From the NCBI GenBank assembly GCA_903843045.1, contig CAIMOJ010000017.1, positions 1-54,038 on the forward strand: 54,038 nucleotides of DNA. The letters run 5' to 3'. Shown piece by piece: positions 7,632 through 23,870 of the stretch (position 1 is the stretch's first letter; each line of letters begins with the position of its first letter). The notes under the pieces are model-generated. The model did not search any database. It worked only from the letters and a program-made list of their open reading frames with translations, and was not told the DNA's origin. Source of the stretch: Candidatus Uhrbacteria bacterium (GTDB lineage: Bacteria > Patescibacteriota > Patescibacteriia > UBA9934 > GWF2-40-263). The position numbers were made by a program, and so were the translations under genes.

Positions 7632-7789
7632 GGGTGCGGATACGGTGGGGTATCGGAATTCGGATCTTACGGAATTACGGAACTGCGGATGTTCGGATAT
7701 ACGTACGTCCGTAGTTCCGAACATCCGCAAATCCGAAGTTCCGAACATCCGCAAGATCCGAATTCCGATACCCCACCGTATCCGTACCC
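7632..7789. repeat. Palindromic CGGA/TCCG 8-bp-periodic element, copy 1
   Basis: 42-bp terminal inverted repeats (2 mismatches); CGGA at 7670/7678/7686/7694, TCCG at 7708/7716/7724/7732/7740/7748. Confidence 0.92.
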
Positions 7790-7932: not shown

Positions 7933-9186
7933 ATGTCGGCATTCGAAAAGGCTCTCCGCGAAGCGGCCAGCAAGTTCAAGTCGTTCACGGACGCAGTCAA
8001 CGCGCACCTGCGCAACGCGTTCGATCGCGGCGCGACGGACGTGAGGATCTCGTACAACGACGCGGGCGAGGGAAGCACGTTCCTCATGATCGAGGACAAC
8101 GGCCGTCCGCTCACCCGCGACCAGTTCGTGGCCGTCACGAACCCGTCCCCCGAACCGGGGAACGCGCACGAGACGCTCGCTCTCACGGGCGTGCACCACG
8201 CGCGGATGCTCACCGTCGACAACGCGGGAGCGATGCGGACGGTGAACTTCGCGGAATACGACGAGTCGAAGCCGGAGCGCTACAAGCAGCTGTACCCCAG
8301 GGTCGTCGAGCGCGACGGCAGCCTCTCGAAGGCCAACGTCGCCATCCAGCTCTGGTACCTCGGCGCCGGCGACGGCGTGGACCCGCGCCAGGACCGCACC
8401 GCCGCGCGGCTGATCAAGCGCCTTCCGGCAATGCTCACCCCTCGCGAGGCGGGGATGGTGACGGTGGTGGACGAGAAGGGAACGGCCACGCGGCTCTCCG
8501 TCATGGCGCGCATGACGGGGGATGGCGAATACGTCGTGTGGATTCCCGAGCCCAAGGCTTCGTTCGACCACGGACAGCCGCTCGCGCTGAAGTACGGAGG
8601 GGTGCGCATGTCGGTCGACCGTCTTGGCCGCGCAATCCTCAGGATGCAAAGAGGCAAGACCAGCGGCCTGTACGTCTCACCATTCGTGCGGTCGCCCTGG
8701 CTGACCGGAACGATCGAGATTGCACGCGTCGACGGCGCAACCGAGTTTCCGGATCCGCGCAACGACTTTCCGGACGCGCAGTATGAAAACGGGTTCGTCG
8801 AGATGCTGTCCGAACTGCTGCTCACGGGATTGAATCGCGAGGGGACGCGACAGGCGATCCTCCGCGCGGCGGACGGAATCTGGACGACGGTAGGCTCCGG
8901 AAACGGCACGTTCAGATTCGACAGGTTCCAGTACGCCGTGGCATGTCGCGCCGAGATCTTTCGGTCCGACGAGCCTGTCCAGCTTGTCGACGCCGTCAAT
9001 ACGAGACGCTCCATCGAGATCAGCGTCATCCACCCGCTCTTCCAGGCGGACGACGGATCAAAGGCCGTCGGCGAGCGCATGCTCTGGGCCGTCGCCGAGT
9101 TCCTGCACCGCATGCATGACCGGAAGACCCTGGTCTCCAACTCGTACCTCGACCTCCGCGAAGCCATCGACAAGGCGCGCGGCTGA
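7933..9186 (+). CDS. Degenerate GHKL (HATPase_c)/MORC-like protein, paralog A
   Basis: DAVNAHLRNAFDRGATDVRI..MIEDNGRPL (motifs I/II, catalytic Glu absent), SPWLTGTIEI, C-terminal ISVIHPLF. Confidence 0.6.
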   Translation: MSAFEKALREAASKFKSFTDAVNAHLRNAFDRGATDVRISYNDAGEGSTFLMIEDNGRPLTRDQFVAVTNPSPEPGNAHETLALTGVHHARMLTVDNAGAMRTVNFAEYDESKPERYKQLYPRVVERDGSLSKANVAIQLWYLGAGDGVDPRQDRTAARLIKRLPAMLTPREAGMVTVVDEKGTATRLSVMARMTGDGEYVVWIPEPKASFDHGQPLALKYGGVRMSVDRLGRAILRMQRGKTSGLYVSPFVRSPWLTGTIEIARVDGATEFPDPRNDFPDAQYENGFVEMLSELLLTGLNREGTRQAILRAADGIWTTVGSGNGTFRFDRFQYAVACRAEIFRSDEPVQLVDAVNTRRSIEISVIHPLFQADDGSKAVGERMLWAVAEFLHRMHDRKTLVSNSYLDLREAIDKARG

Positions 9187-9221
9187 GCCCTGACCGTTCC
9201 CGTGGGGACGGTCATTTTCTT

Positions 9222-9377
9222 TACGGATACGGTGGGGTACGGATACGGTGGGGTATCGGAATTCGGATCTTGCGGATGTTCGGAACTTCGGATTTACGGA
9301 TATCCGAACATCCGCAGTTCCGTAATTCCGTACGATCCGAATTCCGATACCCCACCGTATCCGTACCGTCTCCGTAC
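9222..9377. repeat. Palindromic CGGA/TCCG element, copy 2 (inverted relative to copy 1)
   Basis: Reverse complement of copy 1 lacking three 8-bp units; 16-bp duplication tacggatacggtgggg at 9222/9238. Confidence 0.92.
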
Positions 9378-9424
9378 TTGACAGCCTTTTCCCCCGGTGT
9401 TACTTTGTGTACATCAGACACAAA
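9378..9424 (+). promoter_or_regulatory. nrtR promoter with overlapping NrtR operator
   Basis: TTGACA(9378)-N17-TACTTT(9401); perfect palindrome TTTGTGT-N7-ACACAAA at 9404-9424 fits the known GT-N7-AC NrtR box. Confidence 0.8.
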
Positions 9425-9435
9425 CACTCCACCCT

Positions 9436-10113
9436 ATGACCCAACCCAAACAACCAGCCGAGCAAAGCATCAAGGTCGCCACGGACGCCGTGATCTTTAC
9501 CGTCCGGCGCGGGGAGCTCATGGCGCTTCTCATCCAGATGAAGAAGGTTCCGTACACCGGCAAGTGGGCCGTGCCGGGCGGGATCATCGGGCAGGCCGAG
9601 ACCACCGAGCAGGCGGCACGACGCATCCTGACGACGCAGACCGGGGTGAGCGACGCGCACCTCGAGCAGCTGGCGACGTTCGACGATCCGAAGCGCGACA
9701 AGCTCGGACGCGTGATCAGCGTGGCGTACGTGGCGCTCGTGGCGAGCGAGAAGGTGATCCTCAAGACGACCGAGAAGTACGCGGACGTGCGCTGGTGGCC
9801 GACGAGCAAATTGCCGGCGCTCGCGTACGACCACAAGGACATGGTCGCCGTGGCCGTCGATCGCCTGCGCGCGAAGCTCGAGTACACGAACGTGGCGTGG
9901 AGCCTGCTCCCTCCGCAGTTCACCCTGACCGAGCTGCAGGAGATCTACGAGATCATCCTCGGGCGGCCCGTCGACAAGCGCAACTTCCGGCGGCGCGTGC
10001 TCGACCTCGGCATCGTGGTCGGGACCGGGACCAAGCGGATGGGAGGCGCGCACCGTCCCGCGGAACTGTACGCATTCAAACGGCGAAGCATGGAATACAT
10101 CGAGGTGCTGTAA
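9436..10113 (+). CDS. nrtR: NrtR, Nudix-related ADP-ribose-responsive transcriptional regulator
   Basis: Degenerate Nudix box GG....ETTEQAARRIL, LAYDH, C-terminal wHTH FTLTELQEIYEIIL..DKRNFRRR..HRPAELY. Confidence 0.92.
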   Translation: MTQPKQPAEQSIKVATDAVIFTVRRGELMALLIQMKKVPYTGKWAVPGGIIGQAETTEQAARRILTTQTGVSDAHLEQLATFDDPKRDKLGRVISVAYVALVASEKVILKTTEKYADVRWWPTSKLPALAYDHKDMVAVAVDRLRAKLEYTNVAWSLLPPQFTLTELQEIYEIILGRPVDKRNFRRRVLDLGIVVGTGTKRMGGAHRPAELYAFKRRSMEYIEVL

Positions 10114-10159
10114 GCGCGGGGAAGGCGGCCGGCAAGGCCGCCTCTCTCCAGCCCGATTG

Positions 10160-10210
10160 TTCGTGTAACTTCTACATGAACATACCCCGTTCGTTCGGAT
10201 CGGACACGAA
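10160..10210. promoter_or_regulatory. NrtR operator(s) upstream of pncA
   Basis: TTCGTGT-N7-ACATGAA (10160-10180) and degenerate TTCGTTC-N7-ACACGAA (10190-10210). Confidence 0.65.
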
Positions 10211-10266
10211 GTGCGACAAATTTTTGCCAAGGCTGGTCATTTTTCCAGGATTCCTCTGGTTCCCCC

Positions 10267-10295
10267 TTGACGAAACCGAAGAAATTGGCTAATAT
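10267..10295 (+). promoter_or_regulatory. Promoter of the NAD operon
   Basis: TTGACG-N17-TAATAT. Confidence 0.65.
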
Positions 10296-10304
10296 CAGGC
10301 ACTC

Positions 10305-10363
10305 TTTGGAGTCTTTACCCAAGCCGCCCGCATCCCGCGGACGGCTAGGAAGAAGACTTCAAA
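10305..10363 (+). promoter_or_regulatory. Conserved intergenic stem-loop element E0
   Basis: tttggagtcttt pairs with gaagacttcaaa around the agccgcccgc/gcggacggct hairpin. Confidence 0.7.
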
Positions 10364-10375
10364 AAGGAGCGTTCC

Positions 10376-11140
10376 ATGTCGGCACCACACCCGATCGTTC
10401 GTACGGTCGAAGGCCCCATCATCATCAACGACGTCCTCTGGGCGGTCCTATCCGTGGACATCATGCGCACGTTCATGATGGGCGGCGGCCTCGGCGTACA
10501 GGGCGGACACGAGATCGTCCTTCCGGGTCTGAGGATGATCCGCAAGTTCAGCCGGGAATTCCGGTACGCACTGATGGACATCCACGCGCCCGGAAGCGTC
10601 TCCATCGTCACCAGCTTCGTCGGGTACGAGGCGTTCTACAAGCTCACCTATGACGAGGTGAAGGGGTGGACCCCGAAGAAGAACCGGATCGCCGCGCACG
10701 CGCGATTCACCCTGCGGGAGCTCAAGCGGTACCTGCGGAAGGTCGGCTTCCAGATCCTCTGGCCCGAACACGCGATGGAAGGTACGGACGAGGCCCGCGT
10801 GGAGCCCGAGATCCTCAACGAGTCAACGCTCCCGTGGTTCAAGGGCAACCGTCCGCACTCCGACTCGAATTCCGGATTCGAGGAGAACGACGGGCACGAC
10901 ATCGGTCTCGGCGCTCAGCTCTGGTGCCGAGGAATCAGGAAAATCGTGGTGTGGGGAATCGCGGGCGACGTCTGCGCGGGTCTCACGGCGCTGCACGGAG
11001 CCAAGCGGGGCTTCGAGGTCTACTTCGTCACCGACCTCTCGCCGTGCATCAGCCCCGAGGGCCGCGACGCGATGTACCAGCGTCTCATCGACGCCGGCGT
11101 CCACCTGATCACCTCCGACCAGATCCAGCAAGCGGCCTGA
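10376..11140 (+). CDS. pncA: Nicotinamidase (isochorismatase family)
   Basis: VDIM..F..GG.L.V.GG, DIH, WPEH..EGT, KG....DS.SGF, GIAGDVC. Confidence 0.85.
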   Translation: MSAPHPIVRTVEGPIIINDVLWAVLSVDIMRTFMMGGGLGVQGGHEIVLPGLRMIRKFSREFRYALMDIHAPGSVSIVTSFVGYEAFYKLTYDEVKGWTPKKNRIAAHARFTLRELKRYLRKVGFQILWPEHAMEGTDEARVEPEILNESTLPWFKGNRPHSDSNSGFEENDGHDIGLGAQLWCRGIRKIVVWGIAGDVCAGLTALHGAKRGFEVYFVTDLSPCISPEGRDAMYQRLIDAGVHLITSDQIQQAA

Positions 11141-11164
11141 CCGCTCTCCCCGAGACGCTCTCGG

Positions 11165-11211
11165 GACTTTTCTCCGGATGCTTGCGCCGTGCAGGCCGCC
11201 GAACAGAAGTC
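11165..11211 (+). promoter_or_regulatory. Conserved intergenic stem-loop element E1
   Basis: gactttt/agaagtc basal stem; preceded by cccgaga/tctcggg hairpin. Confidence 0.7.
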
Positions 11212-11234
11212 ACTCGGAACCAGGAGACCTTTCC

Positions 11235-12641
11235 ATGAACATCGTCCTATTTGGCACGAGCGCGAACCCGCCGACGCGGGCGCATCGGCTGGCCGCGGAA
11301 CAGCTTGCCAGGGTCTTTGACCGCGTGGTCGTGATTCCGTGCGGGATCCGTCCGGACAAGCACACGACCAACGTGGTGAGCGTGGTCCACCGGGCGCGGA
11401 TGTGCCAGATGGCATTTTCCGGGATCCCCAACGTCGAGATCGACCTGTCCGATCTCGAACGAACGGAATTCATGACGACCGTCGAGCTCGACCGCCACTG
11501 GAAGCGGCGCGAACCGGGCGCGGACATCTGGCACGCGGTCGGGTCCGACCTGATCCGCGGCGGACGAAGCGGCGCGTCGGACATCCAGCGCGAATGGCGC
11601 GAAGGCAGCACGGTCTGGCAGACTCTGCGCTTCGCGGTCATTCCGCGGCAGAGGTATCCGTTCTCCGACGACGATCTCCCGACGCTCGGGCGCGTCATGG
11701 CGTTCGAGATTCCGGACCATTCGAGCACGGAAGCGAGGCGTCTCCTGTCCTCCGGGCAGAACGCAAGCGACATCGTCTCGCGACGGGTGGCAGAGTATGC
11801 GCTGCGGTTCGGCCTGTACGGATTCGCTCCCGGCAGCCGGACGGAAGGGCGACTGCTTCTCCCGTCAGGCCCGAGTCTGTTCGTGGTCCCGGACCTGAAC
11901 AATCCGGCCGCCGTCCGCCGCGCACGGCGGCTGACCGGCCAGTGCGAACGGCCCGAGGACGCCGACATGATCGTGGCGATCGGCGGCGACGGTCACATGC
12001 TACACGTGATCCGGCAGACGCACCGGCATTGCGTCCCAATTCTCGGCCTCAACGCGGGCCACGTGGGATTCCTGCTCAACGAGCTGTCTCCCGAGGCGCT
12101 CAAGTCGCGCATCGCGGCCGGCGTTCCGTTCACCACGCACCTGCTCCCGATGCTCGCCGTGAGCATCCGGGGGATCGACGGAACGTGGGGCGACGAGCGG
12201 CTGGCATTCCAGGACGCATGGCTCGAGCGGTCCGGAGAGCAAACCGCGCGATTCAAGATCGGCGTCGAGGGACGGAGAACCCGCGCGTTCCAGATCACGT
12301 CCGACGCCATCCTCGGATCCAACCCCGCCGGATCCGGCGCGTATGCCGGCTCGATGGGCGCGCCGCTCATCCCGCTGAACTCCGCGTCCCTGATCCTCGC
12401 GGCCGGATGCGTGGCTCGTCCGAGAAACTGGACGCCAAAGCTGCTCGCAAACGGAACGCGCCTGACCTTCGAGGCGATGGAAACGGAAAAGCGTCCGGTC
12501 CGGGCGGTCATCGACGGATTGGGACACGGACCGGCAATCGGCATGCGCATCCGCCAGAGCGTGCTCGCCGGCGTGGAACTCGCCTTCGACCCGGAACTCA
12601 CGCTCGACCAGAAGATCGAGGACCTGTCCTTTCCAGCCTGA
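11235..12641 (+). CDS. nadD: Nicotinate-nucleotide adenylyltransferase (NadD) - NAD kinase (NadK) fusion
   Basis: N-terminal FGTSANPPTRAH, GSDL, SSTEAR; C-terminal IGGDG, GLNAGHVGFL, NPAGSGAY..SMGAP; AGGAG RBS. Confidence 0.85.
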   Translation: MNIVLFGTSANPPTRAHRLAAEQLARVFDRVVVIPCGIRPDKHTTNVVSVVHRARMCQMAFSGIPNVEIDLSDLERTEFMTTVELDRHWKRREPGADIWHAVGSDLIRGGRSGASDIQREWREGSTVWQTLRFAVIPRQRYPFSDDDLPTLGRVMAFEIPDHSSTEARRLLSSGQNASDIVSRRVAEYALRFGLYGFAPGSRTEGRLLLPSGPSLFVVPDLNNPAAVRRARRLTGQCERPEDADMIVAIGGDGHMLHVIRQTHRHCVPILGLNAGHVGFLLNELSPEALKSRIAAGVPFTTHLLPMLAVSIRGIDGTWGDERLAFQDAWLERSGEQTARFKIGVEGRRTRAFQITSDAILGSNPAGSGAYAGSMGAPLIPLNSASLILAAGCVARPRNWTPKLLANGTRLTFEAMETEKRPVRAVIDGLGHGPAIGMRIRQSVLAGVELAFDPELTLDQKIEDLSFPA

Positions 12642-12662
12642 CCCTTCCGAGACGCTCTCGGA

Positions 12663-12707
12663 TCTTTTCTCAGGAACCCCACCGCCGGTGGGGAGTCTGA
12701 CCGAAGA
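12663..12707 (+). promoter_or_regulatory. Conserved intergenic stem-loop element E2
   Basis: tcttttctcagg..ccccaccgccggtgggg..ctgaccgaaga; near-identical to E3. Confidence 0.75.
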
Positions 12708-12733
12708 CAACGTTCTTTTCAGGGAGACATTCC

Positions 12734-13798
12734 ATGTCATTCAGAGATCACATCGTCGGGTGCGCCGTCGGCGTCACCCTCGAGGCGCTCGGCGTCCCGC
12801 ACGAGACCATCACGCCCGAGGAAATCCTCGCGCTCACGAACGGCGCCGGGCTCACGGGGCTTCACCCCGCGCTCAAGCCGCCGGCGTTCCACAGCGTCAC
12901 GCGCATCCCGCTTGGCGGAACGTCCGACGACTGGCAGCTCTGGCGCGCGGTCGCGCGGTCGCTCATCGCCCGCAGGGGCGAGTTCGACGCGATCGACATG
13001 GGCCGCGAGCACGTGCTCGAGCTCAACCGCTGCACGGACGGATGGGGATCGAGCACCGAGGACGGCGCGCGACGCATCGAGCGCGCGCTCGACTTCGGCG
13101 GCATCGAGCGCCTCTACCCCGAAATCCCGCCGCGCACACCGCATCCTCCCATCCCGGGCGAGGATCCGAACGCGAAGGGATGCGGCAACGGCGTGGCCAT
13201 GAAGGTCGGCCCGCTCGCCATCGCGTCGCTCCGATTTGAGAGCCGCGACAGGTGGCTTTGGGAAAGCTGTCAGAAACTCGGCGAGCTCACCCACCCGAAC
13301 CCGCGCGCATGGATCGCGGCCTACGCCCTGGCCTGGTGCATTCGCGAGTGTCTGCACCGCGCCGAGATCGGAGAGAGGCCGTTCCGCGAGGGATGGGCCC
13401 CGGACGAGTTCCTCCACACGCTCCTCAACGTGATGACCTGTCACGAACCTGTCGGCGGAGATCGCGTGGAAGACCGGCTGCGCCGTCTCCGGCAGCCCGG
13501 CGTCCTCCGTTCGGCCGAGGCGCTTCGCGAGGCGACCGGAACGAGCTGCTACGCGCTCGAGTCCGTCCCGTTCGTCATCGGCACCTTCCTGCGCCATCCC
13601 GCGAACGTCCGCGCCGGAGTCCTCGAGACGCTGAACGCGGGCGGCGACACGGACACGAACGTGGGGATGTACGCCTCGCTCGCCGCCGCGAACGAAGGCT
13701 ATCGCGCGATCCCGAAGAAATGGCTCGCCCAGATCCCGAACTCCCGCCAGGCGTTCGCGCTCGGCGAGGCGCTCTACAATCTCCACGAGAGGCACTAG
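12734..13798 (+). CDS. ADP-ribosylglycohydrolase (DraG/ARH family)
   Basis: TSDDWQL, GNGVAMKVGP, LTH, GGDTDTN. Confidence 0.88.
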   Translation: MSFRDHIVGCAVGVTLEALGVPHETITPEEILALTNGAGLTGLHPALKPPAFHSVTRIPLGGTSDDWQLWRAVARSLIARRGEFDAIDMGREHVLELNRCTDGWGSSTEDGARRIERALDFGGIERLYPEIPPRTPHPPIPGEDPNAKGCGNGVAMKVGPLAIASLRFESRDRWLWESCQKLGELTHPNPRAWIAAYALAWCIRECLHRAEIGERPFREGWAPDEFLHTLLNVMTCHEPVGGDRVEDRLRRLRQPGVLRSAEALREATGTSCYALESVPFVIGTFLRHPANVRAGVLETLNAGGDTDTNVGMYASLAAANEGYRAIPKKWLAQIPNSRQAFALGEALYNLHERH

Positions 13799-13862
13799 CC
13801 TCCGTCCCTCAAGCCATTCTCGGCTTGTCCTCAATAGCTCCCGCTCAGGAGCGACGGAGGAA

Positions 13863-13907
13863 TCTTTTCTCAGGACCCCCACCGCCGGTGGGGAGCCTGA
13901 CCGAAGA
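13863..13907 (+). promoter_or_regulatory. Conserved intergenic stem-loop element E3
   Basis: Near-identical to E2. Confidence 0.75.
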
Positions 13908-13933
13908 CAATACCCTTTTCACAGGAGGCACAC

Positions 13934-15220
13934 ATGTGCATGGCACAACGCGGGCTGATCGAGGAAATTCTCGACGGTCCGGTCGTCGGCGGAATGCTCG
14001 ACGACGACTTCTACACCGAGACCATGGGACAGTTCGTCCACGAGCGTCACCCGGACGTCGAGGTCGTCCTCGGGCTGAAGAACCGCTCGAAGGAACGGCT
14101 CGCCGAATCGGTCGGCGAGAACGAGCTCGGCGACGAGCTGACGCGGCTGCAGGCCCGTCGCTTCACCAGGACGGAGCTGCACTACGTTCTCGGCACGGAC
14201 GAGTACGGCGACCGGATGTTCCGCACGCCGTACATCCGGCACCTCGAGGCGTTCCAGATGACGCCGTTCGACCTCTCCGCAAGGGACGGGCAGTTCCATC
14301 TCCAATTTCCCGGCCAATGGAAGTTCGCCATGCGCTGGGAGGTCCCGGCGCTCGCCACCATCAACGGGCTGCGGACGCGCAACCGCCTTCGCGGGATGTC
14401 CAGCGGGGAACGCGACCTCGTCATCGCGACCGGCATCACCCGGCTGTGGGAGAAAATCCGCACCATCAGGAAGTATCCGAAGCTCACGTTCACGGACTTC
14501 GGGACGCGGCGCAGATTCCACCGCGCGTGGCAGCGCTACGTCGTGAAGACCCTGCGCGACGAGCTTCCCGGCCAGTTCCTCGGCACCTCGAACACCGAGG
14601 CTGCCATGGACTTCGGCGTCATGCCGATGGGCACGAACGCGCACCAGCTCTACATGGTGATCGCGGCCATCCTGTCCGCCACGGACGAGAGCCTCGTCGC
14701 CTCCCACAACCTCGTGCTGCGCGAGTGGTGGAACCTGTACGGCTGGACGCTGTCGATCGCGCTCACCGACACCTTCGGGAGCGACTTCTTCTTCCGAGAC
14801 TTCACGGCCAAGCAGGCCGAGGAGTGGAAGGGCCTGCGCCAGGACTCCGGCGACCCGGTCGCGTTCGGGCACAAGGCGCTCGCGTTCTACCGCAAGCACG
14901 GCATCAACCCCATGGACAAGCTGCTGATCTTCAGCGACGGCCTCGACATGGAGATGATCGTCCGGCTGTGGCTCGAATTCGAGGGCCAGATCAAGGTGTC
15001 GTTCGGCTGGGGCACGCTTCTCACGAACGACCTCGGCCTCAGCGCGATCTCGATCGTCATCAAGGTCCTGGCCGCGCGCCTGAACGCGGATTCCCCGTGG
15101 GTGGGAACGGTGAAGCTCTCGGACAACATCGAGAAGGCGATGGGCTCCGCCGAGGACATCGAGCGATACAAGCGCGTCTTCCAGTACCTCACCACCTACG
15201 CCGCGGAGTGCCGCGTCTGA
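13934..15220 (+). CDS. pncB: Nicotinate phosphoribosyltransferase
   Basis: LDDDFY, DFGTRRR, GTSN, GTNAH, LTDTFG, GLRQDSGDP, FSDGLD, FGWGT, KLSD. Confidence 0.93.
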   Translation: MCMAQRGLIEEILDGPVVGGMLDDDFYTETMGQFVHERHPDVEVVLGLKNRSKERLAESVGENELGDELTRLQARRFTRTELHYVLGTDEYGDRMFRTPYIRHLEAFQMTPFDLSARDGQFHLQFPGQWKFAMRWEVPALATINGLRTRNRLRGMSSGERDLVIATGITRLWEKIRTIRKYPKLTFTDFGTRRRFHRAWQRYVVKTLRDELPGQFLGTSNTEAAMDFGVMPMGTNAHQLYMVIAAILSATDESLVASHNLVLREWWNLYGWTLSIALTDTFGSDFFFRDFTAKQAEEWKGLRQDSGDPVAFGHKALAFYRKHGINPMDKLLIFSDGLDMEMIVRLWLEFEGQIKVSFGWGTLLTNDLGLSAISIVIKVLAARLNADSPWVGTVKLSDNIEKAMGSAEDIERYKRVFQYLTTYAAECRV

Positions 15221-15235
15221 GCGAGACCGTCTCGC

Positions 15236-15289
15236 TTCTTTTCTCCAGGCAACGAGCGCATTCCGCGTTCGCTGCCTCGAGGTGAAGAA
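15236..15289 (+). promoter_or_regulatory. Conserved intergenic stem-loop element E4 (3' strand includes SD GAGGTG)
   Basis: ttcttttctccaggc...gcctcgaggtgaagaa. Confidence 0.7.
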
Positions 15290-16231
15290 ATGGCTCTTCT
15301 CAACAGACTGCTTTTGTTGGCGACTCCCGAGATGGAGGCGGTGGCATGGACGATCAAGGCGACCGCGGCGTTCCAGGTGGACGTCGAGGTCCTTGAGTGG
15401 GACCGGCGGTTTCCGGACGGGTTTCCCGACCAGAGGATCGTGTCGCCCCTGCGCGGCAGGGACGTCTGCGTCCTCGCGTCGTTCCATTCGCCCGACGCGA
15501 TCGAGCGGCAGTCCGGCATCATCTGCGCGATCCCTCGCTTCGGCTCGCGGTCGCTGCGCGTGGTGGCGCCGTACTTTCCCGGGACGATGGAGCGCGTTCG
15601 GAAGCCCGGCGAAATCGCCACGGCCATGACGTACGCGCGGCAGTTGTCGGCGACGCCGGCCTGTCGAATCGGCGGCATGGCGGAGTTCGTCTTCTACGAC
15701 ATCCACCAGACCGGCATCCAGTTCTACTTCGGCGACGGCGTGGCCGTCCGACTGGAGACGGCGATCCCGCTGCTCAAGTCACGCCTGCACACGCTCGGAT
15801 TCTACGAGCGGGAAACCCTGGTCATGTTCCCCGACGACGGGGCGCACAAGCGGTTCGGCGACGACTTTCCCGAGTTCGACCAGGGAATCTGCGCGAAGGT
15901 TCGCGGCGAGGGCGACGAGCGAATCGTCCGCCTGATCTGCGGGAATCCGCGCGGCTGCAAGGTCGTGGTCGTCGACGACCTGATCCAGCGCGGAGGGACG
16001 ATGATCGAGACGGGGAAGCTCATGCGCGACCTGGGCGCGACCGACGTGATCGGCTTCGCCACGCACTTCGTGGGCCCCGACTTTGCCGAAGCCCGCTTCG
16101 TGCCGAACGAACCGTTCTCCCGCGTGATCGTCACCGATTCGCATCCGTCCGCGGCCCGCGTCGACATTCGCGAGCCGTTCGAAGTCCTTTCGCTCGGCGC
16201 AGCGATCGCAGCCATCATCCGCGAGGAATGA
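15290..16231 (+). CDS. prs: Ribose-phosphate pyrophosphokinase, class II (plant PRS3/4-like)
   Basis: FPDG, PYFPGTMER..GEIATA, YDIH, FPDDGAHKRF, KVRGEGDERIVRL..GNP.G..VVVVDDLIQRGGT, ATH. Confidence 0.88.
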   Translation: MALLNRLLLLATPEMEAVAWTIKATAAFQVDVEVLEWDRRFPDGFPDQRIVSPLRGRDVCVLASFHSPDAIERQSGIICAIPRFGSRSLRVVAPYFPGTMERVRKPGEIATAMTYARQLSATPACRIGGMAEFVFYDIHQTGIQFYFGDGVAVRLETAIPLLKSRLHTLGFYERETLVMFPDDGAHKRFGDDFPEFDQGICAKVRGEGDERIVRLICGNPRGCKVVVVDDLIQRGGTMIETGKLMRDLGATDVIGFATHFVGPDFAEARFVPNEPFSRVIVTDSHPSAARVDIREPFEVLSLGAAIAAIIREE

Positions 16232-16232
16232 C

Positions 16233-16790
16233 ATGTTCAGACTATTCGCAACGCTCTACACCGGCTTCGTCTCGCTCGAGGCGTGGGCCCGCGGGAATGA
16301 GACCAAACCGATCCTCGTCGTCCGATCGACGGACTCGTGCTCCGGCCTTCTCTACGACCGACCGCGCAACCGCGTCCTCCTCGTTCGCCAGAACCGCGCG
16401 CCGATGGTGCGCGATGACAATCCCGACGGCTCCATCGTCGAGCTCGTCGCCGGACGCTTCGACCGCGCGGTCGGACCGAAGGCGCTGTTCGTCGCCGAGG
16501 CAAAGGAGGAAGCCGGCGCGAATATCACGGAAGAAGACGTGGAGCTCCTGAACGGCGGCCGGCCGATGGCCCCGTCGCCCGGAATCCTCACCGAGCGCTG
16601 CACCCTGGCCTTCGTCGAGATTCGCGAGGAGCATCTCGACGCGGGAGAAACGTTCGGCGTCGCTGCCGAGCACGAGGTCACCAATCGCGAGTGGATGTCC
16701 GTCCAAGGTTTCCTCTCCGGCCCGCACGATGACCTCCGCGTCTACACGCTCGCGCGCGAGCTCGAGTGCAGACTCCTTCGGAAGCGCTGA
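16233..16790 (+). CDS. Nudix hydrolase, ADP-ribose pyrophosphatase (NudF/NudK)-like
   Basis: VLLVRQNRAP, ELVAG, EAKEEAG, SPGILTE; starts immediately after the prs stop. Confidence 0.8.
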   Translation: MFRLFATLYTGFVSLEAWARGNETKPILVVRSTDSCSGLLYDRPRNRVLLVRQNRAPMVRDDNPDGSIVELVAGRFDRAVGPKALFVAEAKEEAGANITEEDVELLNGGRPMAPSPGILTERCTLAFVEIREEHLDAGETFGVAAEHEVTNREWMSVQGFLSGPHDDLRVYTLARELECRLLRKR

Positions 16791-16797
16791 CGCTTCC

Positions 16798-16851
16798 GTC
16801 TTTTCTCCAGGACTCGATCGCATTCCGCGCTCAAGTCCTCAAGGTGAAGAT
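16798..16851 (+). promoter_or_regulatory. Conserved intergenic stem-loop element E5
   Basis: gtcttttctccaggact...agtcctcaaggtgaagat. Confidence 0.7.
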
Positions 16852-17901
16852 ATGACGTCCCCAACCAACGTTCTCATGATCGGCGATTTCGGAAAGGACC
16901 TGGACGACGAGTTCGCCCTGCTCCTTGCCGTGGCGCTCGAGCGGCTCGGATACATTCGCCTGCTCGGCGTCGTCGCGAACCTCGCGCCGGCAATCGAGCG
17001 CGCGCGGCTTGCGAAGGGCACGCTTCAGACCCTCGGGCTCGGGCGCGTCCCGGTCGCGATCGGACGGCCCGTCACCGACGCGGGACGAACCTGCCCGCAC
17101 GATACGACCGTCCCGTATCTCGCCGACGCGTCCGAGCTGTCGGGCGAGGGGATCGACCTGATGCGACGGGTCCTCTCGGAAGCGGACGACCGCTCGGTCA
17201 CGCTCGTCCTGAATAGCGCGTTCACGGACGCCGCCGCGCTCGCCCGATCGAGCCCCGATCTGTTCCTGAGCCGCGTCTCCCACGTCGCCATCATGGGCGG
17301 CGTTACTGAGCGCGACGGACGTCTCGTTCCGGACGACGCCGCCAACAACGCGTTCGACCCGGCCGCGGCCGAGTTCCTCTACCGCTGGCTCCAGGACAAT
17401 CGCGTCCCGACCACGGTCGTGATGCGCGAGGCGGCCTACGCGTGCCAGATGGCCGCGTGGCTTCCCGTGAAGCTCGCCGAGATCGGGCACCCGGTGGGCC
17501 TCTCCCTCGCGCGTCGGCTTCCGCTCGTGATGGACGACCTCTGGGAGGCGGTCCACGCGCCAATCGGCTCGCCGATCCGCGGGACGCTCCCGCCCTCGCG
17601 GACCCGGGACTGGTACGTTCGCACCACCACCGGCAACAAGGACCCGGGCGTGCCGGGCGACGAGACCGTCTGGCCGTTCGTGGAAACGTTCCGCCTGTAT
17701 GACCCGATGAACCTCCTCGCCGCCGTGCCGGAACTCGCGGACCGGTTCTATGACGCCGATACGTTCACGGTGAACGGCACCGCGCACAAGGTCATCGGGC
17801 GCACCAAGGAATGCAACGGCATCCGCGACCCGCTGGCCCTCCGCGAAACCCTCGCGCAGTTCGCCACCGAGGCGCTTGCCCCGTTCGCCGGCGAGGACTA
17901 G
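16852..17901 (+). CDS. Inosine/uridine-preferring nucleoside hydrolase family protein
   Basis: DFGKDLDDE, IMGGV, ANNAFD, LYDP. Confidence 0.8.
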   Translation: MTSPTNVLMIGDFGKDLDDEFALLLAVALERLGYIRLLGVVANLAPAIERARLAKGTLQTLGLGRVPVAIGRPVTDAGRTCPHDTTVPYLADASELSGEGIDLMRRVLSEADDRSVTLVLNSAFTDAAALARSSPDLFLSRVSHVAIMGGVTERDGRLVPDDAANNAFDPAAAEFLYRWLQDNRVPTTVVMREAAYACQMAAWLPVKLAEIGHPVGLSLARRLPLVMDDLWEAVHAPIGSPIRGTLPPSRTRDWYVRTTTGNKDPGVPGDETVWPFVETFRLYDPMNLLAAVPELADRFYDADTFTVNGTAHKVIGRTKECNGIRDPLALRETLAQFATEALAPFAGED

Positions 17902-17950
17902 CTCCTCCTCGCCTTGTCCTCCATAGCTCCCGCTCAGGGGCGACGTAGGA

Positions 17951-17994
17951 CTCTTTCTCCCGGCCGCCGAATCGTCGACGCCCGGGACCGAAGA
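17951..17994 (+). promoter_or_regulatory. Conserved intergenic stem-loop element E6
   Basis: ctctttctcccgg...ccgggaccgaaga. Confidence 0.65.
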
Positions 17995-18011
17995 AATGCA
18001 AGGATACCCTC

Positions 18012-18932
18012 ATGCAACTGCGAGCTCTTTCCCTTTCGATCATGACGAGCGACCGCGAGAACTGCAACGCGGGATGCCAGTTCTGCATCTCGCGAACCAC
18101 CCCGGGCGACGTCATCGACCCGCGCGAACCGAAGCACTGCTCCGAGGCGCGGCTCCAGGTCGCGCTCGGCTACGCGAAGGCGCTCGGCGCCACGCACGGG
18201 ATCCTGACCGGCAAGGCCGACCCCACGCAGGAGAAGCCCGAGTACCTGTGCGGGCTGGTGCGAAGCGTCCGCCAGCACCTTCCACTGTGCGACATGCACA
18301 CGAACGGCTTCCTGCTGCACCCGGGCAAGAACCGCGAGCACCTGCTCGCGGGGCTCGTGGACGCGGGCCTCACGATGGTCACGCTCTCAATCGCAAGCTT
18401 CGACGAGGACGGGAACCGCGAGCTCATGGGCATCCGCCAGAGCGCCGCGGAGCTCATCCCCCTCGCGCGCGAGCTCGGCCTCATGGTCCGGTGCTCGCTC
18501 GTGGTCTGCAAGGGCGGAGCGAGCAACACCGATGAGGTGCTCGCGTACGTGCGACAAGCCGGCGAGCTCGGCGCCCAGTCCGTGGTCGTCCGCGAGGTGT
18601 GGCGCCCCGAGGTGCTCACCCCGGTGAACGAGCGCGTCTACGCGTGGAACCACGAGAACGCCATCGAGATCCAGCCCATCGAGGACGATATCGCGGATAT
18701 CGCGGAAACCAAGGGGAACCCGCACAGTCTCCACAAGCTCTACACGCTGCCGTGGGGCCGCAAGGTGTTCGCGTTCGGCGAAGGGACCTTCCGTGACCCG
18801 AGCCACGCCGTGCAGGTCGTCGTCTCCACGAGCGGAGACAACTTCCGCGGTGGTACCTACCAGACCCTCGTCCTCCGCCCCGACGGCAACGTCTACGGCG
18901 GATGGGAAAGCAAGGGCTCCATCCTCGCCTGA
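18012..18932 (+). CDS. Radical SAM protein
   Basis: CNAGCQFC (CX3CX2C), TGKADP, HTNG, LSIAS. Confidence 0.88.
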   Translation: MQLRALSLSIMTSDRENCNAGCQFCISRTTPGDVIDPREPKHCSEARLQVALGYAKALGATHGILTGKADPTQEKPEYLCGLVRSVRQHLPLCDMHTNGFLLHPGKNREHLLAGLVDAGLTMVTLSIASFDEDGNRELMGIRQSAAELIPLARELGLMVRCSLVVCKGGASNTDEVLAYVRQAGELGAQSVVVREVWRPEVLTPVNERVYAWNHENAIEIQPIEDDIADIAETKGNPHSLHKLYTLPWGRKVFAFGEGTFRDPSHAVQVVVSTSGDNFRGGTYQTLVLRPDGNVYGGWESKGSILA

Positions 18933-18980
18933 TCGCGACCGTCGCGGTCTTGTCCTCCGAAGCTCGCCGAGCAATGAGGA

Positions 18981-19026
18981 CTCTTTTCTCCAGCCGCCGA
19001 AATCCTCGGCGGCTGGATCCAAGGAG
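18981..19026 (+). promoter_or_regulatory. Conserved intergenic stem-loop element E7 (3' strand is SD AAGGAG)
   Basis: ctcttttctccagccgccga/tcggcggctggatccaaggag. Confidence 0.7.
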
Positions 19027-19031
19027 ATTGA

Positions 19032-20141
19032 ATGCCACGCTTCAGCAACGTCCTCTTCGTCGGAACCGGCGGGGGAAACGACATCTTCTCGACAGCGCTC
19101 GCGATGCTTTCGCTTCGCCGGGCAGGGTACGAGTGGGATTCCTGCTCCGTCGCGGGAGTGCTCAGCCCGTTCCATCGTTACCGCGGACTGACTCGAACGG
19201 AATGCAAGCACGTCGATTCCATTCCCGACCGGGAAATCAAGCGCATCGTGCCGTGCCTCGTGGACGTCATCGAGCTCGACATGGTCGAACGAACGGTCGC
19301 GTCGCTCGCCCGGGCCGAACGGGACCTGAACGTCGGCGCGGTCTACGGACTGTCGCTGACCGAGGGAACGAGCGGTCTGGAGGAAGCGTTCCGCTGGCTC
19401 GCGTCCACGCATGACTTCGTTGTGCTCGTGGACATCGGCGGCGACATCCTGTTCCGCGGGTTCGATACGGATCCGCGCGTGCTTTCCCCGATGTTCGACG
19501 CGATGGTCCTCGAGGCGTTCTGCGCGTCCGGAGCGCCGGGCATCCTGTTCGAGGCCGGCCCGGGAACGGACGGCGAGATCAGCCCCGGGTCGCTCAAGGA
19601 AACGCTCCTTGACCCGACGGTTCAGAGCTGTCCGCTCGCGGCGTCCGTCGTCGACGAATGGGATCGGCTGTTCCGAACGCACGTCGAACCCGTCCGTGCC
19701 GGCCGCACGGTCCCGAAGACCATCGAGGCATTCCGGTCCGAACGGCCATCGCTCACCCTCGACTACCGCGCGCGATGCCACCTTGGCAAGCGGCGCTGGT
19801 ACGCGACGTTTCCCCACGAGATCGACACGGCCCTGAACCGTTCCTTCTACCTCGTCCCTCCCAAGTGGGCGCGACGCCGCAACCCCTTCTGCGTTCCCTG
19901 CCGATCCGTTGAGGAATGGATCGGGATGACGCGGCAGCCGGGCTGCCATGTCAACGGGGAGTTCCAGTTCGAATATCTGACCGCGGACAGGAGCGTCTGG
20001 CTCCTTGCGCTCCCGTCCCCGCTGTTCACGCCCGACCAGCGGAAGGAGATGGTCGACGCGGCATTCGAGGACGCGCGCCGCGGCAACTGCCACGGCGTGA
20101 TCGTCGACGGCCCGGAAGGCCTGGTCTGCCGCACTTCGTGA
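19032..20141 (+). CDS. DUF1152-like protein
   Basis: GTGGGNDI, VDIGGDIL, GPGTDGE motifs. Confidence 0.7.
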   Translation: MPRFSNVLFVGTGGGNDIFSTALAMLSLRRAGYEWDSCSVAGVLSPFHRYRGLTRTECKHVDSIPDREIKRIVPCLVDVIELDMVERTVASLARAERDLNVGAVYGLSLTEGTSGLEEAFRWLASTHDFVVLVDIGGDILFRGFDTDPRVLSPMFDAMVLEAFCASGAPGILFEAGPGTDGEISPGSLKETLLDPTVQSCPLAASVVDEWDRLFRTHVEPVRAGRTVPKTIEAFRSERPSLTLDYRARCHLGKRRWYATFPHEIDTALNRSFYLVPPKWARRRNPFCVPCRSVEEWIGMTRQPGCHVNGEFQFEYLTADRSVWLLALPSPLFTPDQRKEMVDAAFEDARRGNCHGVIVDGPEGLVCRTS

Positions 20142-20155
20142 TCCGGCTCGGATCA

Positions 20156-20209
20156 CTCTTTTCTCCAGCCCTCGAGCGCATGTCGCGCTCGAGGGCTCGA
20201 AACGAAGAG
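20156..20209 (+). promoter_or_regulatory. Conserved intergenic stem-loop element E8
   Basis: ctcttttctccagccctcgagcgc/gcgctcgagggct..gaagag. Confidence 0.7.
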
Positions 20210-20233
20210 CACCTTACACTCGGAGAAAACAAC

Positions 20234-22270
20234 ATGGGAACCAAGCCCTACATCGTTCGCGGTCGCAGCAAGACGCTCGGGTTCGCCCGGGTCTCGCTCG
20301 CCACCTTCTGGACCAAGGCCATGGACGTGCCCGGCAACCTCACCAAGCACATCGAGATGGCATTCGCGGCCGAGGAGGCCGGCGCGCAGATCTGCGCGTT
20401 TCCGGAGCTCGGAATTTCCGGGTACAACTGCAAGCAGGCCTTTCGCGACCGCATGATCCAGGTTGCCTCGCTCGAGGCGCTTCGCACGTTCTGCGTGCGG
20501 ACGTCCTCGAGCCGGACCGTATTCGTGGTCGGACTGCCGCTCGCGCTGGAGAAGATCTTCAACGTGGCGGTGTTCGTGAGCCACGGCAAGGTCATCGCGA
20601 TCATGCCGAAGAGCTACCTCGCCGCGCGCGGCGAATGGCAGGAAGGCGACTACTTCTCCGCGGCCAAGGAGCTCTCGCAAACCGAGATCAAGCTCGACTG
20701 GCAGGAGGAGATGGTTCCGATCGGCACGGACATCCGCGTCCAGGTGCTCGACGAGAACGAACAGCCGCAGTTCGTGACCGCGGCGGAGATCTGCGAGGAC
20801 GGCTGGCAGAGCAACTCGCCCGGCGACCGTCACGCGCACAACGGCGCGCACGTCATTGCGAACCTGTCCGCGTCCAACTGGATCCTCGGCAAGGACAGCT
20901 GGAGGCGCGTGACGTTCCCGGCCAGCTCGGGTCGGCAGAAGTCGGTGTACCTCTATGCCACCGGCGCGGATTCCACCTCCTCCGTAGTGTGGGACCAGCA
21001 CTGCATGATCATCGAGGACGGCGCGATTCTCGGCGAGACCAAGCGCTGGACCGTTCCGCAGAAGGACCCGCCCGAGCTGCTCGTGCGCGACGTGGACATC
21101 GACAAGCTGATCCACGACCGCCAGGCCGACGGCGGCTGGAACGCGGCCGCGGAGGCCAACAGGCACCCGTACCGGGACGTCGTCACGCACGCGCGCGGCT
21201 ACGTCCCGAACGCGAAGGACTTTCGGCGCCCGCTCACGCGGCTGCCGTTCGTCCCCGCGGACCCGGCGGCCATGAAGCGCGTGGGCGAGGAGCTGTTCAA
21301 CGCCCTCACGCAGGGCCTGCTCGGCCGCGCGATCCACGTCACGGGAAGCATCGAGCGCCCGCTCGACGGCTACATGGGCCTGTCGGGAGGATTGGACTCG
21401 GCCCTCGCGTTCATCCTCTGCTGCGTCGGCTACGACCGCGCCGGCTGGAGCCGCACGCACATGTACGCGGTGCGGATGCCCGGCCCCGGGTCGAGCAAGC
21501 ACACCCAGAACGATTCGCTGCGGCTCGCGGAAGCCATGGGCGCGTCGATTGAGACCGTGGACATCACCGAGATGGCCGCTACCGACCTGCGCGCCACCGG
21601 CCACGAGCCGTGCTGGGACTGCGAGAAGTGCGAGAACGCGCAGGCCCGCGTCCGCACGCTCGTCCTCAAGACCTTCGGGTTCAACTGGGGAACAGGCGAC
21701 ATGGACGAGGGCGCGAAGGGCTGGTGCACCGAGGGCGGCGACCAGTCGAGCATGTGGCACGTCATCGCCAACATGCCGAAGACGCTGGTGCGGTTCCTGG
21801 TGCTCTACTTCATCGAGTACCTGGCAACCCCGGAGGAACGCAAGTCCCTCCGGAGCATCCTGCGCACGGTGATCTCTCCGGAGCTCCGCAAGCGCAAGCC
21901 CGGCCAGAAGGCGCAGGCGTCGGAAGACAAGATGGGGCCCTACGACCTCACCGGATTCTTCCTCTACCACATCCTCCGCACCGGCGGGGAACCGGAGCGC
22001 ATCGCGTTCCTCGCGGAAGTCGCGTTCGGACGCGCCGAGCGCTCCGTGAAGGACGCGATCTACGACCGCCGCATGATTCTGCGATGGCTCAGGGACTTCT
22101 ACGTGAAGTTCAACTGGTCGCAGTTCAAGCGCCAGACCGCGCCCGACTCGTCGCTCACCGGCTCGATCGGCCTCGGCCAGCACGACAAGCTCCGCTGGCC
22201 CACCGACGGCTCGTCCGTCGTCTGGTCAAACGAGTGCGACCGCCTCATCGCCGAGCTCGGCACGGCATGA
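20234..22270 (+). CDS. nadE: Glutamine-dependent NAD+ synthetase
   Basis: Nitrilase triad motifs FPEL/PKSYL/EICED; SGGLDS; ENAQAR; GTGD; SPEL. Confidence 0.93.
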   Translation: MGTKPYIVRGRSKTLGFARVSLATFWTKAMDVPGNLTKHIEMAFAAEEAGAQICAFPELGISGYNCKQAFRDRMIQVASLEALRTFCVRTSSSRTVFVVGLPLALEKIFNVAVFVSHGKVIAIMPKSYLAARGEWQEGDYFSAAKELSQTEIKLDWQEEMVPIGTDIRVQVLDENEQPQFVTAAEICEDGWQSNSPGDRHAHNGAHVIANLSASNWILGKDSWRRVTFPASSGRQKSVYLYATGADSTSSVVWDQHCMIIEDGAILGETKRWTVPQKDPPELLVRDVDIDKLIHDRQADGGWNAAAEANRHPYRDVVTHARGYVPNAKDFRRPLTRLPFVPADPAAMKRVGEELFNALTQGLLGRAIHVTGSIERPLDGYMGLSGGLDSALAFILCCVGYDRAGWSRTHMYAVRMPGPGSSKHTQNDSLRLAEAMGASIETVDITEMAATDLRATGHEPCWDCEKCENAQARVRTLVLKTFGFNWGTGDMDEGAKGWCTEGGDQSSMWHVIANMPKTLVRFLVLYFIEYLATPEERKSLRSILRTVISPELRKRKPGQKAQASEDKMGPYDLTGFFLYHILRTGGEPERIAFLAEVAFGRAERSVKDAIYDRRMILRWLRDFYVKFNWSQFKRQTAPDSSLTGSIGLGQHDKLRWPTDGSSVVWSNECDRLIAELGTA

Positions 22271-22278
22271 CCGCATCT

Positions 22279-22306
22279 CCCGCTTCGTCTCGAAGCGGGT
22301 TTTTCT
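22279..22306 (+). terminator. Terminator closing the NAD operon
   Basis: cccgcttcg/cgaagcggg plus TTTTTT. Confidence 0.8.
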
Positions 22307-22386
22307 ATGGGACGATTCGCCTCGTCGACTCGTTGACAGCCCTCCGCTCGCCTGCTACATTCCACCCGCTTCCAAGGTGGAATCTC

Positions 22387-23277: not shown

Positions 23278-23512
23278 ACGGCGTTACTTTCTTTCCGCGG
23301 AGAAAGAAAGTAACCAAAGAAAGCCGCCGCCCGGTCTCCATGGCGGGATGGGACGCAAAACCTGGCCTCGGCTGCGGAACTCGCTAGCTGCGCCAGACGC
23401 AAACCCCTGACGCGCCGCTTCGCTCAGGCAATCCTCGCCCGTCCTGACCGACCCGGCCAAGTTTTACGTCCCATCTCCCATCCGCCATTCCGACAGGGCG
23501 GGTTGACCGGGC
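23278..23512 (+). repeat. Structured REP/MITE-like repeat (GTTACTTTC...GAAAGTAACCAAAGA type), copy A
   Basis: Homologous to the reverse complement of 23627-23870 with compensatory stem changes. Confidence 0.8.
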
Positions 23513-23626: not shown

Positions 23627-23870
23627 CCGGTCAGCCGCCCTGCCGGAGCGACCCAGCCAGGACGTGAAAATCTGACGGCGGCCTCAGCCGGGCGAGGATT
23701 GTCTGAGCGTACGAGCCCGCAGGCGAGAAGCGAGTTCCGCAGCGAGTCAGATTTTTACGTCCTGGCGCAGGAGCGGATGGCCGGGCGGTAGCGGCTCTCT
23801 TTGGTTACTTTCTCTGCCCGCCCTACAGAGAAAGTAACGCGGGTGCAGGGCGCAGCGCCTGCGGCAAACA
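23627..23870 (-). repeat. Structured REP/MITE-like repeat, copy B
   Basis: Inverted relative to copy A; close to 31010-31245. Confidence 0.8.

Follow-up and report, generated by a model that had tools for sequence, protein, structure and literature searches.

An NrtR-headed, putative NAD-recycling gene cluster with a XopQ-like hydrolase in a Candidatus Uhrbacteria genome

The window analyzed here is the whole of contig CAIMOJ010000017.1 (54,038 nucleotides) from the genome of a Candidatus Uhrbacteria bacterium, and the system under study is a cluster of eleven co-directional genes (9436–22270, forward strand) headed by the regulator gene nrtR. It is proposed, with a probability of roughly 0.5, that this cluster recycles nicotinamide adenine dinucleotide (NAD) and serves as an inducible means of recovering NAD destroyed in phage or host conflicts. 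According to this proposal, swappable front-end hydrolases are predicted to yield ADP-ribose and nicotinamide from several products of NAD breakdown, and the ADP-ribose would release NrtR from its boxes at nrtR, pncA, and probably pnuC-nadR. An ADP-ribosylglycohydrolase (ARH) would free ADP-ribose bound to proteins, while a XopQ-like enzyme would open a derivative of ADP-ribose, either cyclic or glycosidic and most likely 2′ cyclic ADP-ribose (2′cADPR), to give linear ADP-ribose. A Nudix hydrolase would split ADP-ribose into ribose-5-phosphate and AMP, a dedicated Prs would convert the ribose-5-phosphate to phosphoribosyl pyrophosphate (PRPP), and PncA, PncB, NadD, NadE, and NadK would complete the path to NAD and NADP. 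This loop of reactions can be predicted with good confidence because it follows from the established functions of the families involved.

An earlier note on this DNA, made from its letters, had named eight families in the cluster, and all are present at the positions it gave, co-directional and with open frames. The order is nrtR (9436–10113), a pncA-like nicotinamidase gene of isochorismatase fold (10376–11140; PF00857), a nadD-nadK gene (11235–12641; PF01467 and PF01513), an ARH gene of the ARH/DraG family (12734–13798; PF03747, E 3e-35), pncB for nicotinate phosphoribosyltransferase (13934–15220), a divergent Prs-like pyrophosphokinase gene (15290–16231), a Nudix hydrolase gene (16233–16790), the gene of a XopQ-clade protein of nucleoside-hydrolase fold (16852–17901), a radical S-adenosylmethionine (SAM) gene identified by family match and a CxxxCxxC motif (18012–18932), a DUF1152 gene assigned by family match (19032–20141), and nadE for glutamine-dependent NAD synthetase (20234–22270). 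The NadD and NadK domains are encoded by a single fused gene rather than by two. Its list of families was sound as far as it went; the XopQ-clade hydrolase, the radical SAM protein, DUF1152, and a repeated RNA element in the spacers were missing from it. Curated NCBIfam cut-offs are exceeded by PncB (PRK05321 and TIGR01514) and NadE (PRK02628, 498 bits). PncB is of the type with an NAPRTase_N domain and without the NAMPT N-terminal domain. PncA and NadD carry the expected Pfam folds above the gathering score while their NCBIfam equivalog scores fall below the cut-off. The Prs-like protein reaches 83.9 bits against a TIGR01251 cut-off of 113, with a best Protein Data Bank (PDB) match at E 2e-14, and the Nudix protein, which has no Pfam match, bears a weak likeness to the YffH/AdpP group of ADP-ribose diphosphatases (TIGR00052, E 2e-7, below cut-off), from which its substrate is presumed.

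The genome is 1.28 Mb in size and 96% complete, and the DnaA encoded in the window has its top match in Ca. Uhrbacteria (77%), which bears out the earlier suggestion that the organism belongs to the candidate phyla radiation (CPR). The cluster is chromosomal, as its contig also carries dnaA, dnaN, and the trigger factor gene. The genome encodes the NAD-dependent ligase LigA, and the organism consequently needs NAD; there is no transporter gene within the eleven-gene operon. A tblastn search had suggested that the prs of the window is the sole copy in the genome, which was ruled out when a family search found a second Prs-like gene on another contig (C58:5900–6928).

The regulator has the architecture of NrtR, with its Nudix (PF00293) and winged-helix repressor (PF21906) domains both above cut-off, and scores 164 against the 400 required by the narrower equivalog NF050029. 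Its Nudix box is without the catalytic glutamates, fitting a sensor rather than an enzyme. The pattern TTNNNGT-N7-ACNNNAA has two matches in the window where 0.24 would be expected by chance, a count reached in 2 of 100 shuffles, in agreement with the earlier claim that NrtR has operators here. Operator 1 (9404–9424) is a perfect 21-bp palindrome with a GT-N7-AC core; it overlaps the −10 of nrtR and is identical in the sister species G003. Operator 2 (10160–10180) precedes the promoter of the operon by approximately 87 nt and is also kept in G003. The putative nrtR promoter (9378–9406, forward strand; TTGACA-17 nt-TACTTT, with TG before the −10) was read by eye; the promoter scan missed it, its −10 matching at only 3 of 6 positions, and G003 retains both its −35 and the −10/operator. 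The same scan identified a sigma-70-like promoter for the cargo genes (10267–10295, forward strand; TTGACG-17-TAATAT). A third, degenerate NrtR-like palindrome is located at 10190–10210, with a mismatch in the core and arms that are retained in G003. The published NrtR consensus is a 21-bp palindrome with a GT-N7-AC core (Rodionov et al. 2008, PMC2330246), and the same paper describes nrtR-pncA-pncB-nadD-nadE, NrtR-controlled second copies of prs, and nrtR-draG, in NAD salvage operons of free-living bacteria.

Scanning of the non-coding sequence of the whole genome produced four candidate NrtR boxes: the two in the window, one on contig C14, and one upstream of a pnuC and nadR-like operon on contig C43 (L110:6674–8360, forward strand; box at 6674). 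The box upstream of pnuC-nadR suggests that the NrtR regulon probably includes this second, import-based route to NAD. A weak NadD-like gene (L110:8405–9013) is convergent to pnuC-nadR. NrtR-type boxes adjoin nrtR in most of the relatives examined, and PnuC scores above cut-off in 5 of 60 relatives.

The link to XopQ within an NAD operon is the new point of this locus. The protein encoded at 16852–17901 (349 aa; PF01156) has XopQ as its best NCBIfam match (134 bits, E 6e-39, compared with 30 bits for RihA), and its top PDB matches are three XopQ chains. A profile built from 40 of 97 family proteins matches XopQ structures at E 1e-67 to 1e-69 and canonical nucleoside hydrolases at 8e-10 or worse. 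The motif DxxxDxDD sets HopQ1/XopQ apart from canonical DxDxxxDD enzymes (PMC3608555), and the hydrolase contains both this motif (D12–D19) and a C-terminal Tyr-Asp pair (Y283–D284). Among 236 family members, 209 contain a match to a loose form of the DxxxDxDD pattern and 1 a match to a narrower canonical DxDxGxDD. Given an inferred 13-residue offset for chain 7jlu_B, D16 and D284 align to D120 and D399 of XopQ, whose mutants are inactive (bioRxiv 10.64898/2026.06.15.732069). The N-terminal type III secretion extension is absent, the match starting at residue 4 of 349 as against residue 121 of 7jlu_B, and the predicted model of the hydrolase has a confidence score (pLDDT) of 95. Of the 60 relatives, 4 carry XopQ-like genes, each within an NAD operon, and these genes fall in two clades that are only 36–38% identical.

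XopQ converts 2′cADPR to ADP-ribose and blocks type VI Thoeris in Escherichia coli, exogenous 2′cADPR enters cells, and XopQ is inactive on the common nucleosides tested (bioRxiv 10.64898/2026.06.15.732069). By homology, it is possible, if short of probable, that 2′cADPR itself is the substrate of the hydrolase. A comparably tentative explanation for the hydrolase alone is that it acts as an N-ribohydrolase, releasing nicotinamide or nicotinate for PncA and PncB from nicotinamide riboside, nicotinamide mononucleotide (NMN), or NAD, and that the likeness to XopQ reflects a pocket enlarged to take a phosphorylated riboside. Such a role would be consistent with the nucleoside-hydrolase fold and PF01156 assignment, with the histidine phosphatases and the second hydrolase type that each occur in 3 of 11 sister operons, and with the nicotinamide-salvaging riboside hydrolases known from yeast and Trichomonas. 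It accords poorly with the XopQ-type DxxxDxDD in place of canonical DxDxxxDD and with the inactivity of XopQ on those nucleosides; moreover, three relatives encode a separate, non-XopQ hydrolase beside the XopQ-like one, which suggests separate jobs. The fullest form of the proposal, in which the XopQ-clade enzyme of a CPR symbiont destroys 2′cADPR made by TIR proteins and the resulting ADP-ribose derepresses the operon via NrtR and is rebuilt into NAD, is doubtful.

The distribution of the cluster was surveyed among relatives, a phylum sample, and phages, and it is not clade-wide housekeeping, one of the outcomes that the earlier note had named as contrary to its view. Full-length PncB is encoded by 11 of 60 relatives, including 9 of 36 within the family (a weak partial match in G028 is uncounted), and of the 300 phylum genomes sampled, 5 encode a member of the NAPRTase family, which in two cases is of the NadV type. 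NrtR is present in 18 of the 60 relatives, including all eleven with pncB. The gene content of the operons of these eleven was taken from fetched stretches around them, several of which were ended by contig ends; radical SAM genes were present in 6, ARH in 4, XopQ-like genes in 4, histidine phosphatase genes in 3, a second, non-XopQ hydrolase type in 3, prs in 2, and DUF1152 in 1. The nadD-nadK fusion is shared with 8 relatives, and a full-length Prs-like gene is encoded somewhere in the genome in 9 of the 11. The families encoded here suffice to draw the full closed loop of the earlier note; the same loop is not a conserved unit, with prs in 2 and ARH in 4 of those operons. A single operon with the whole loop is the form that a variable system takes in this lineage. 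Further swappable cargo includes a SLOG-domain pair in G011 (L023:12251–13813) and the histidine phosphatases of G055, G051, and G005 (L017, L021, and L022).

Among 50,697 phage records, 13 match pncB. The jumbo Agrobacterium phage Atu_ph07 clusters genes for an isochorismatase, an NMN adenylyltransferase-like protein, an annotated ADP-ribose pyrophosphatase, and a true pncB (L127:4353–10251), which makes it a candidate deamidating phage NAD route. The radical SAM gene has no solved relative below E 0.2, one weak phage match, and one short match in metagenome contigs, with no confirmed locus in viral contigs; its atlas neighbors are mostly phage clusters, a lead only.

Comparison with close relatives indicates that the genes of the operon have been replaced individually. 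The trigger factor of the window is 99% identical to that of G003, 97% to that of G001, 70–73% to those of three other congeners, and 51–54% to those of five other genera. In G003 the operon occupies the corresponding position and encodes a PncB that is 93% identical, yet its ARH is only 36%, its PncA 42%, and its NadD 31% identical, and the gene order has changed, ARH being the first cargo gene in G003 as in G007. G001 has an NrtR (78%) in front of different cargo. PncB is 37–38% identical to that of other congeners, yet 67% to that of another genus, and in a 15-row PncB tree the genome of the window, G003, G031, and G032 form a group with 100/100 support that excludes the congeners G004, G005, and G007. 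The third-codon-position GC content (GC3) of the eleven genes is 0.83–0.93 compared with a genome median of 0.84, and a recent foreign insertion of the operon was rejected on the basis of this native-like composition; the term island used previously thus fits the patchy distribution and not the composition. Judged from these comparisons, the locus is a long-resident slot in which genes are exchanged singly, with no fresh insertion. Variable modules and displacement are hallmarks of conflict systems (Iyer 2022, PMC9503650), and gene-by-gene replacement together with the XopQ-like gene appears to fit a conflict role.

The operon is also distinguished by a twin-hairpin spacer element in which the stop codon is followed by a short hairpin, P1, and then by a 43–53-nt stem, P2; the stem begins with a YCUUU tract and finishes in a run of purines ahead of the next start. 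In a census based on the authors' own gene calls, with a descriptor tuned on these copies, the element was found in 9 of 9 operon spacers of at least 50 nt and in 4 of 394 other same-strand spacers (50–300 nt) genome-wide. The copies lie on the forward strand at 10311–10359 (the P2 stem of the leader copy, held out of the training set of the model), 11167–11213 (P2, with P1 just upstream), 12662–12710, 13862–13910, 15236–15290, 16798–16852, 17951–17996, 18981–19027, and 20156–20210. The operon ends in a plain intrinsic terminator without a P2 stem (22279–22309, forward strand; terminator scan). When 42 copies taken from genomes with 45–69% GC are aligned by sequence alone, two-sided changes occur at 13 of 17 pairs and 84% of cells pair; the covariation score was reached by none of 500 shuffles, and slid controls reached at most 0.22 compared with 0.54, values that are inflated by related copies. 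The model recovered the held-out copies, the leader copy among them, and matched in 14 of 60 relatives (only 98 candidates were scored per genome), chiefly in NAD operons. No Rfam family matched in the window at the gathering score, and a literature search of a partial library found no paper describing such spacers. There is also no RNA holder on record at this locus, a result that says nothing about expression.

The spacers would likely cut or stabilize the long mRNA as gene-sized units, and the best guess for their role, by analogy with cip-cel, is mRNA processing or stabilization. The genome presumably encodes RNase III and RNase J, going by sequence motifs. Masking of ribosome-binding sites was rejected as a general role, a Shine-Dalgarno-like word being inside P2 in 17 of 42 copies. 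Specificity for NAD operons was likewise rejected, as the element also occurs in small-gene arrays and in an ABC/vWA/AAA operon of two relatives. One such array, of small and partly paralogous genes upstream of rpoB on contig C3 of this genome (L112:5473–8989, reverse strand), has three copies. The operon of the two relatives (L114 on G004:C5; L116 on G005:C16) encodes vWA, OmpA/NMT1, weak PspA-like, ABC transporter, AAA ATPase, and radical SAM proteins. The spacer tract shared between copies is likely a joint for gene exchange. Blocks shared with G003 start or end at 10354, 13863, 16232, 18949, and 20157, two of which fall exactly on the spacer tract, where a block starts at the pyrimidine tract of the element at 13862–13910 and another ends at that of 20156–20210. 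These edges would fit exchange in P2-gene-P1 modules, although swaps of whole genes would have their ends in spacers in any case.

Plain nutritional salvage is a strong rival to a conflict role, if in itself rather unlikely. It holds that a NAD-needing symbiont uses an ordinary NrtR regulon to scavenge nicotinamide, ribosides, and ADP-ribose from its host, with the patchiness due to host range and gene loss. LigA, the NrtR-like box of the import-based pnuC-nadR route, the comparable NrtR operons of free-living bacteria, the native-like GC3, and the lack of a defense-family match in a PADLOC scan of the eleven genes are all compatible with scavenging, and the second salvage route and the free-living precedent favor it. 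What it accounts for less well is the replacement of ARH, PncA, and NadD by 31–42% identical homologues despite a 99% identical trigger factor, the presence of ARH and a XopQ-clade enzyme, which target adducts or signals and not vitamins, and an operon without a transporter. The conflict role is favored by how rapidly genes have been displaced and by hydrolases directed at adducts and signals. The genome yielded no match to TIR_2, ThsB-TIR, SIR2, SIR2_2, or Macro, so these families give no internal source of NAD breakdown products; ADP-ribosyltransferase families were not searched. Possible sources of the products are phages of the organism itself, the immunity of its host, and normal turnover in the host.

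It is improbable that the cluster acts mainly in repair of the organism's own proteins after ADP-ribosylation by phage transferases, with NAD salvage as clean-up, as in the ARG-centered systems of Iyer 2022. The operon pairs ARH with NrtR and encodes neither a transferase nor a sirtuin, and ARH heads the cargo in G003 and G007; against this, ARH is found in only 4 of 11 relatives' operons and the phosphatase and chaperone partners of those systems are absent from this one. Less probable still is a shortcut of the NARP1 kind, in which Prs would pyrophosphorylate ADP-ribose and PncB would couple nicotinate to give nicotinate adenine dinucleotide, bypassing the Nudix hydrolase and NadD. The Prs is divergent (best PDB match E 2e-14) with a second copy in the genome, and phage annotations of Prs and Nampt earlier concealed this chemistry. 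The operon nevertheless keeps both NadD and the Nudix hydrolase, PncB exceeds canonical cut-offs and lacks the NAMPT N-terminal domain, and phage matches to the Prs are weak (25–28% among the matches listed).

Several observations count against inducible recovery of NAD in conflicts. PncA, NadD, NadK, Prs, the Nudix protein, and ARH all score below NCBIfam cut-offs, so the exact substrates of these enzymes are drawn from their families. The complete loop in one operon is rare among the relatives, the genome has a second Prs and a second NAD route in pnuC-nadR, the distance between operator 2 and the −35 is large for simple repression, and the PADLOC scan gave no meaningful match, only a weak Nudix match for NrtR. 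The combination of genes is largely known already (Rodionov 2008; the ARG and NrtR operons of Iyer 2022). With respect to the hydrolase, the XopQ equivalog cut-off of 500 is failed at 134 bits (relatives 97–163), and the family is broad, with 711 clusters at E<=1e-30, many of them fused to TPR, sulfotransferase, or kinase domains (51 long members scanned), such that the substrate may vary. Only 2 of 300 phylum genomes match the XopQ-like hydrolase; the strong match, G291, has its XopQ-like gene far from its pncB, and there is no XopQ-like match among the 50,697 phage records.

These proposals touch on an open field, namely cofactor supply in CPR bacteria and how they cope with host immunity. 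If correct, the cluster would represent a self-inducing equivalent, in a cellular organism, of phage RyDEP-NARP1, an episymbiont could disarm or feed on host NAD-based immunity, and there would be a hint that the effector XopQ was recruited from a NAD-recycling enzyme; the operon would also be built of exchangeable gene modules with a conserved RNA element as the joint. Should the XopQ-like protein open 2′cADPR, the pairing of immune-signal degradation with NAD rebuilding, demonstrated so far in phages, would extend to cellular symbionts, and a non-virulence origin for XopQ would be plausible. Should it cleave something else, a large uncharacterized clade would gain a new substrate. The radical SAM gene and the spacer RNA are two further undescribed parts. 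Literature searches found no paper, within a partial library, describing NAD salvage or NrtR in Patescibacteria or Uhrbacteria, or a kinase-adenylosuccinate module, and none on XopQ-like enzymes or such NAD operons in CPR bacteria, the supplements of Rodionov 2008, Iyer 2022, and the XopQ preprint being outside the scope of the latter search.

Other features were observed around the operon and among related NrtR loci. In G001, G004, and G005 (L113, L115, and L132), NrtR also stands in front of a module that encodes two proteins of ~400 and ~330 aa together with kinase-like and adenylosuccinate-synthetase-like proteins, and PP2C phosphatase or kinase-like genes lie within the NrtR operons of G007, G051, and G018 (L133, L135, and L129). 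Upstream of nrtR, the gene at 7933–9186 is flanked by two long imperfect palindromes of 8-nt units, inverted, at 7632–7789 and 9219–9367. Approximately five related loci occur in the genome, four of them on this contig, and the copy preceding nrtR is absent from G003. The product of 7933–9186 is just 51% identical in G003; it and the product of 26105–27295 are ~400-aa paralogues that are 29% identical and have no Pfam match. Downstream of the operon, a pair of 31-nt inverted repeats (23297–23327 and 23791–23821) surrounds ~460 nt without a called gene.

Among known systems, the cluster belongs to the NrtR regulon class, of the NAD-salvage kind. It shares with the NrtR regulons of Rodionov 2008 (PMC2330246) the regulator architecture, the 21-bp GT-N7-AC boxes, the deamidating salvage genes, an NrtR-controlled second prs, and an ARH beside nrtR. 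It differs from what is described there in the gathering of all these parts in one 13-kb CPR cluster, in the NadD-NadK fusion and gene-level swapping, and in the XopQ-like, radical SAM, and DUF1152 extras and repeated RNA spacers. The hydrolase resembles XopQ/HopQ1 (bioRxiv 10.64898/2026.06.15.732069) in DxxxDxDD, both activity-essential aspartates (by alignment), the adjacent Tyr, and a full-length domain match, a likeness drawn from sequence; in contrast, it is without the secretion extension, scores 134 bits against 500, and is encoded within the NAD operon of a non-pathogen.

The phage glycosidase RyDEP, which adjoins NARP1, feeds linearized cyclic ADP-ribose into NAD synthesis (PMC13232231). 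The cluster is not a member of NARP1, 2, or 3, and would work like RyDEP-NARP1 (PMC13232231; 10.1101/2024.02.11.579819) in its logic of linearizing cyclic ADP-ribose and rebuilding NAD from ADP-ribose and nicotinamide. The enzyme families are different, the system is cellular and regulated, and a seven-step deamidating route takes the place of the two-step Adps-Namat route. Unlike NARP1 and NARP2, it has a transferase of the PncB type, not Nampt/Namat, and is chromosomal rather than phage-encoded. The PnuC and NadR pair of NARP3 (PMC13464706) has a parallel on contig C43 behind an NrtR-like box, a pair that is chromosomal, outside the window, and separate from the operon. ARG and NrtR operons have been proposed to counter viral ADP-ribosylation (Iyer 2022, PMC9503650), and the present cluster shares with those ARG-centered systems the ARG and NrtR-type repressor, the variable modules, and an operon without a coupled transferase or sirtuin. 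Here the partners are NAD-salvage genes, and the rhodanese-type phosphatases and chaperones found in part of those systems are not among the eleven genes. Finally, the spacers are comparable to the processing and stabilization stem-loops of cip-cel (PMC10311766), which occupy most intergenic regions of a long operon; in the present case, one conserved two-hairpin motif, with putative cleavage and no Rfam match, precedes nearly every gene across a family.

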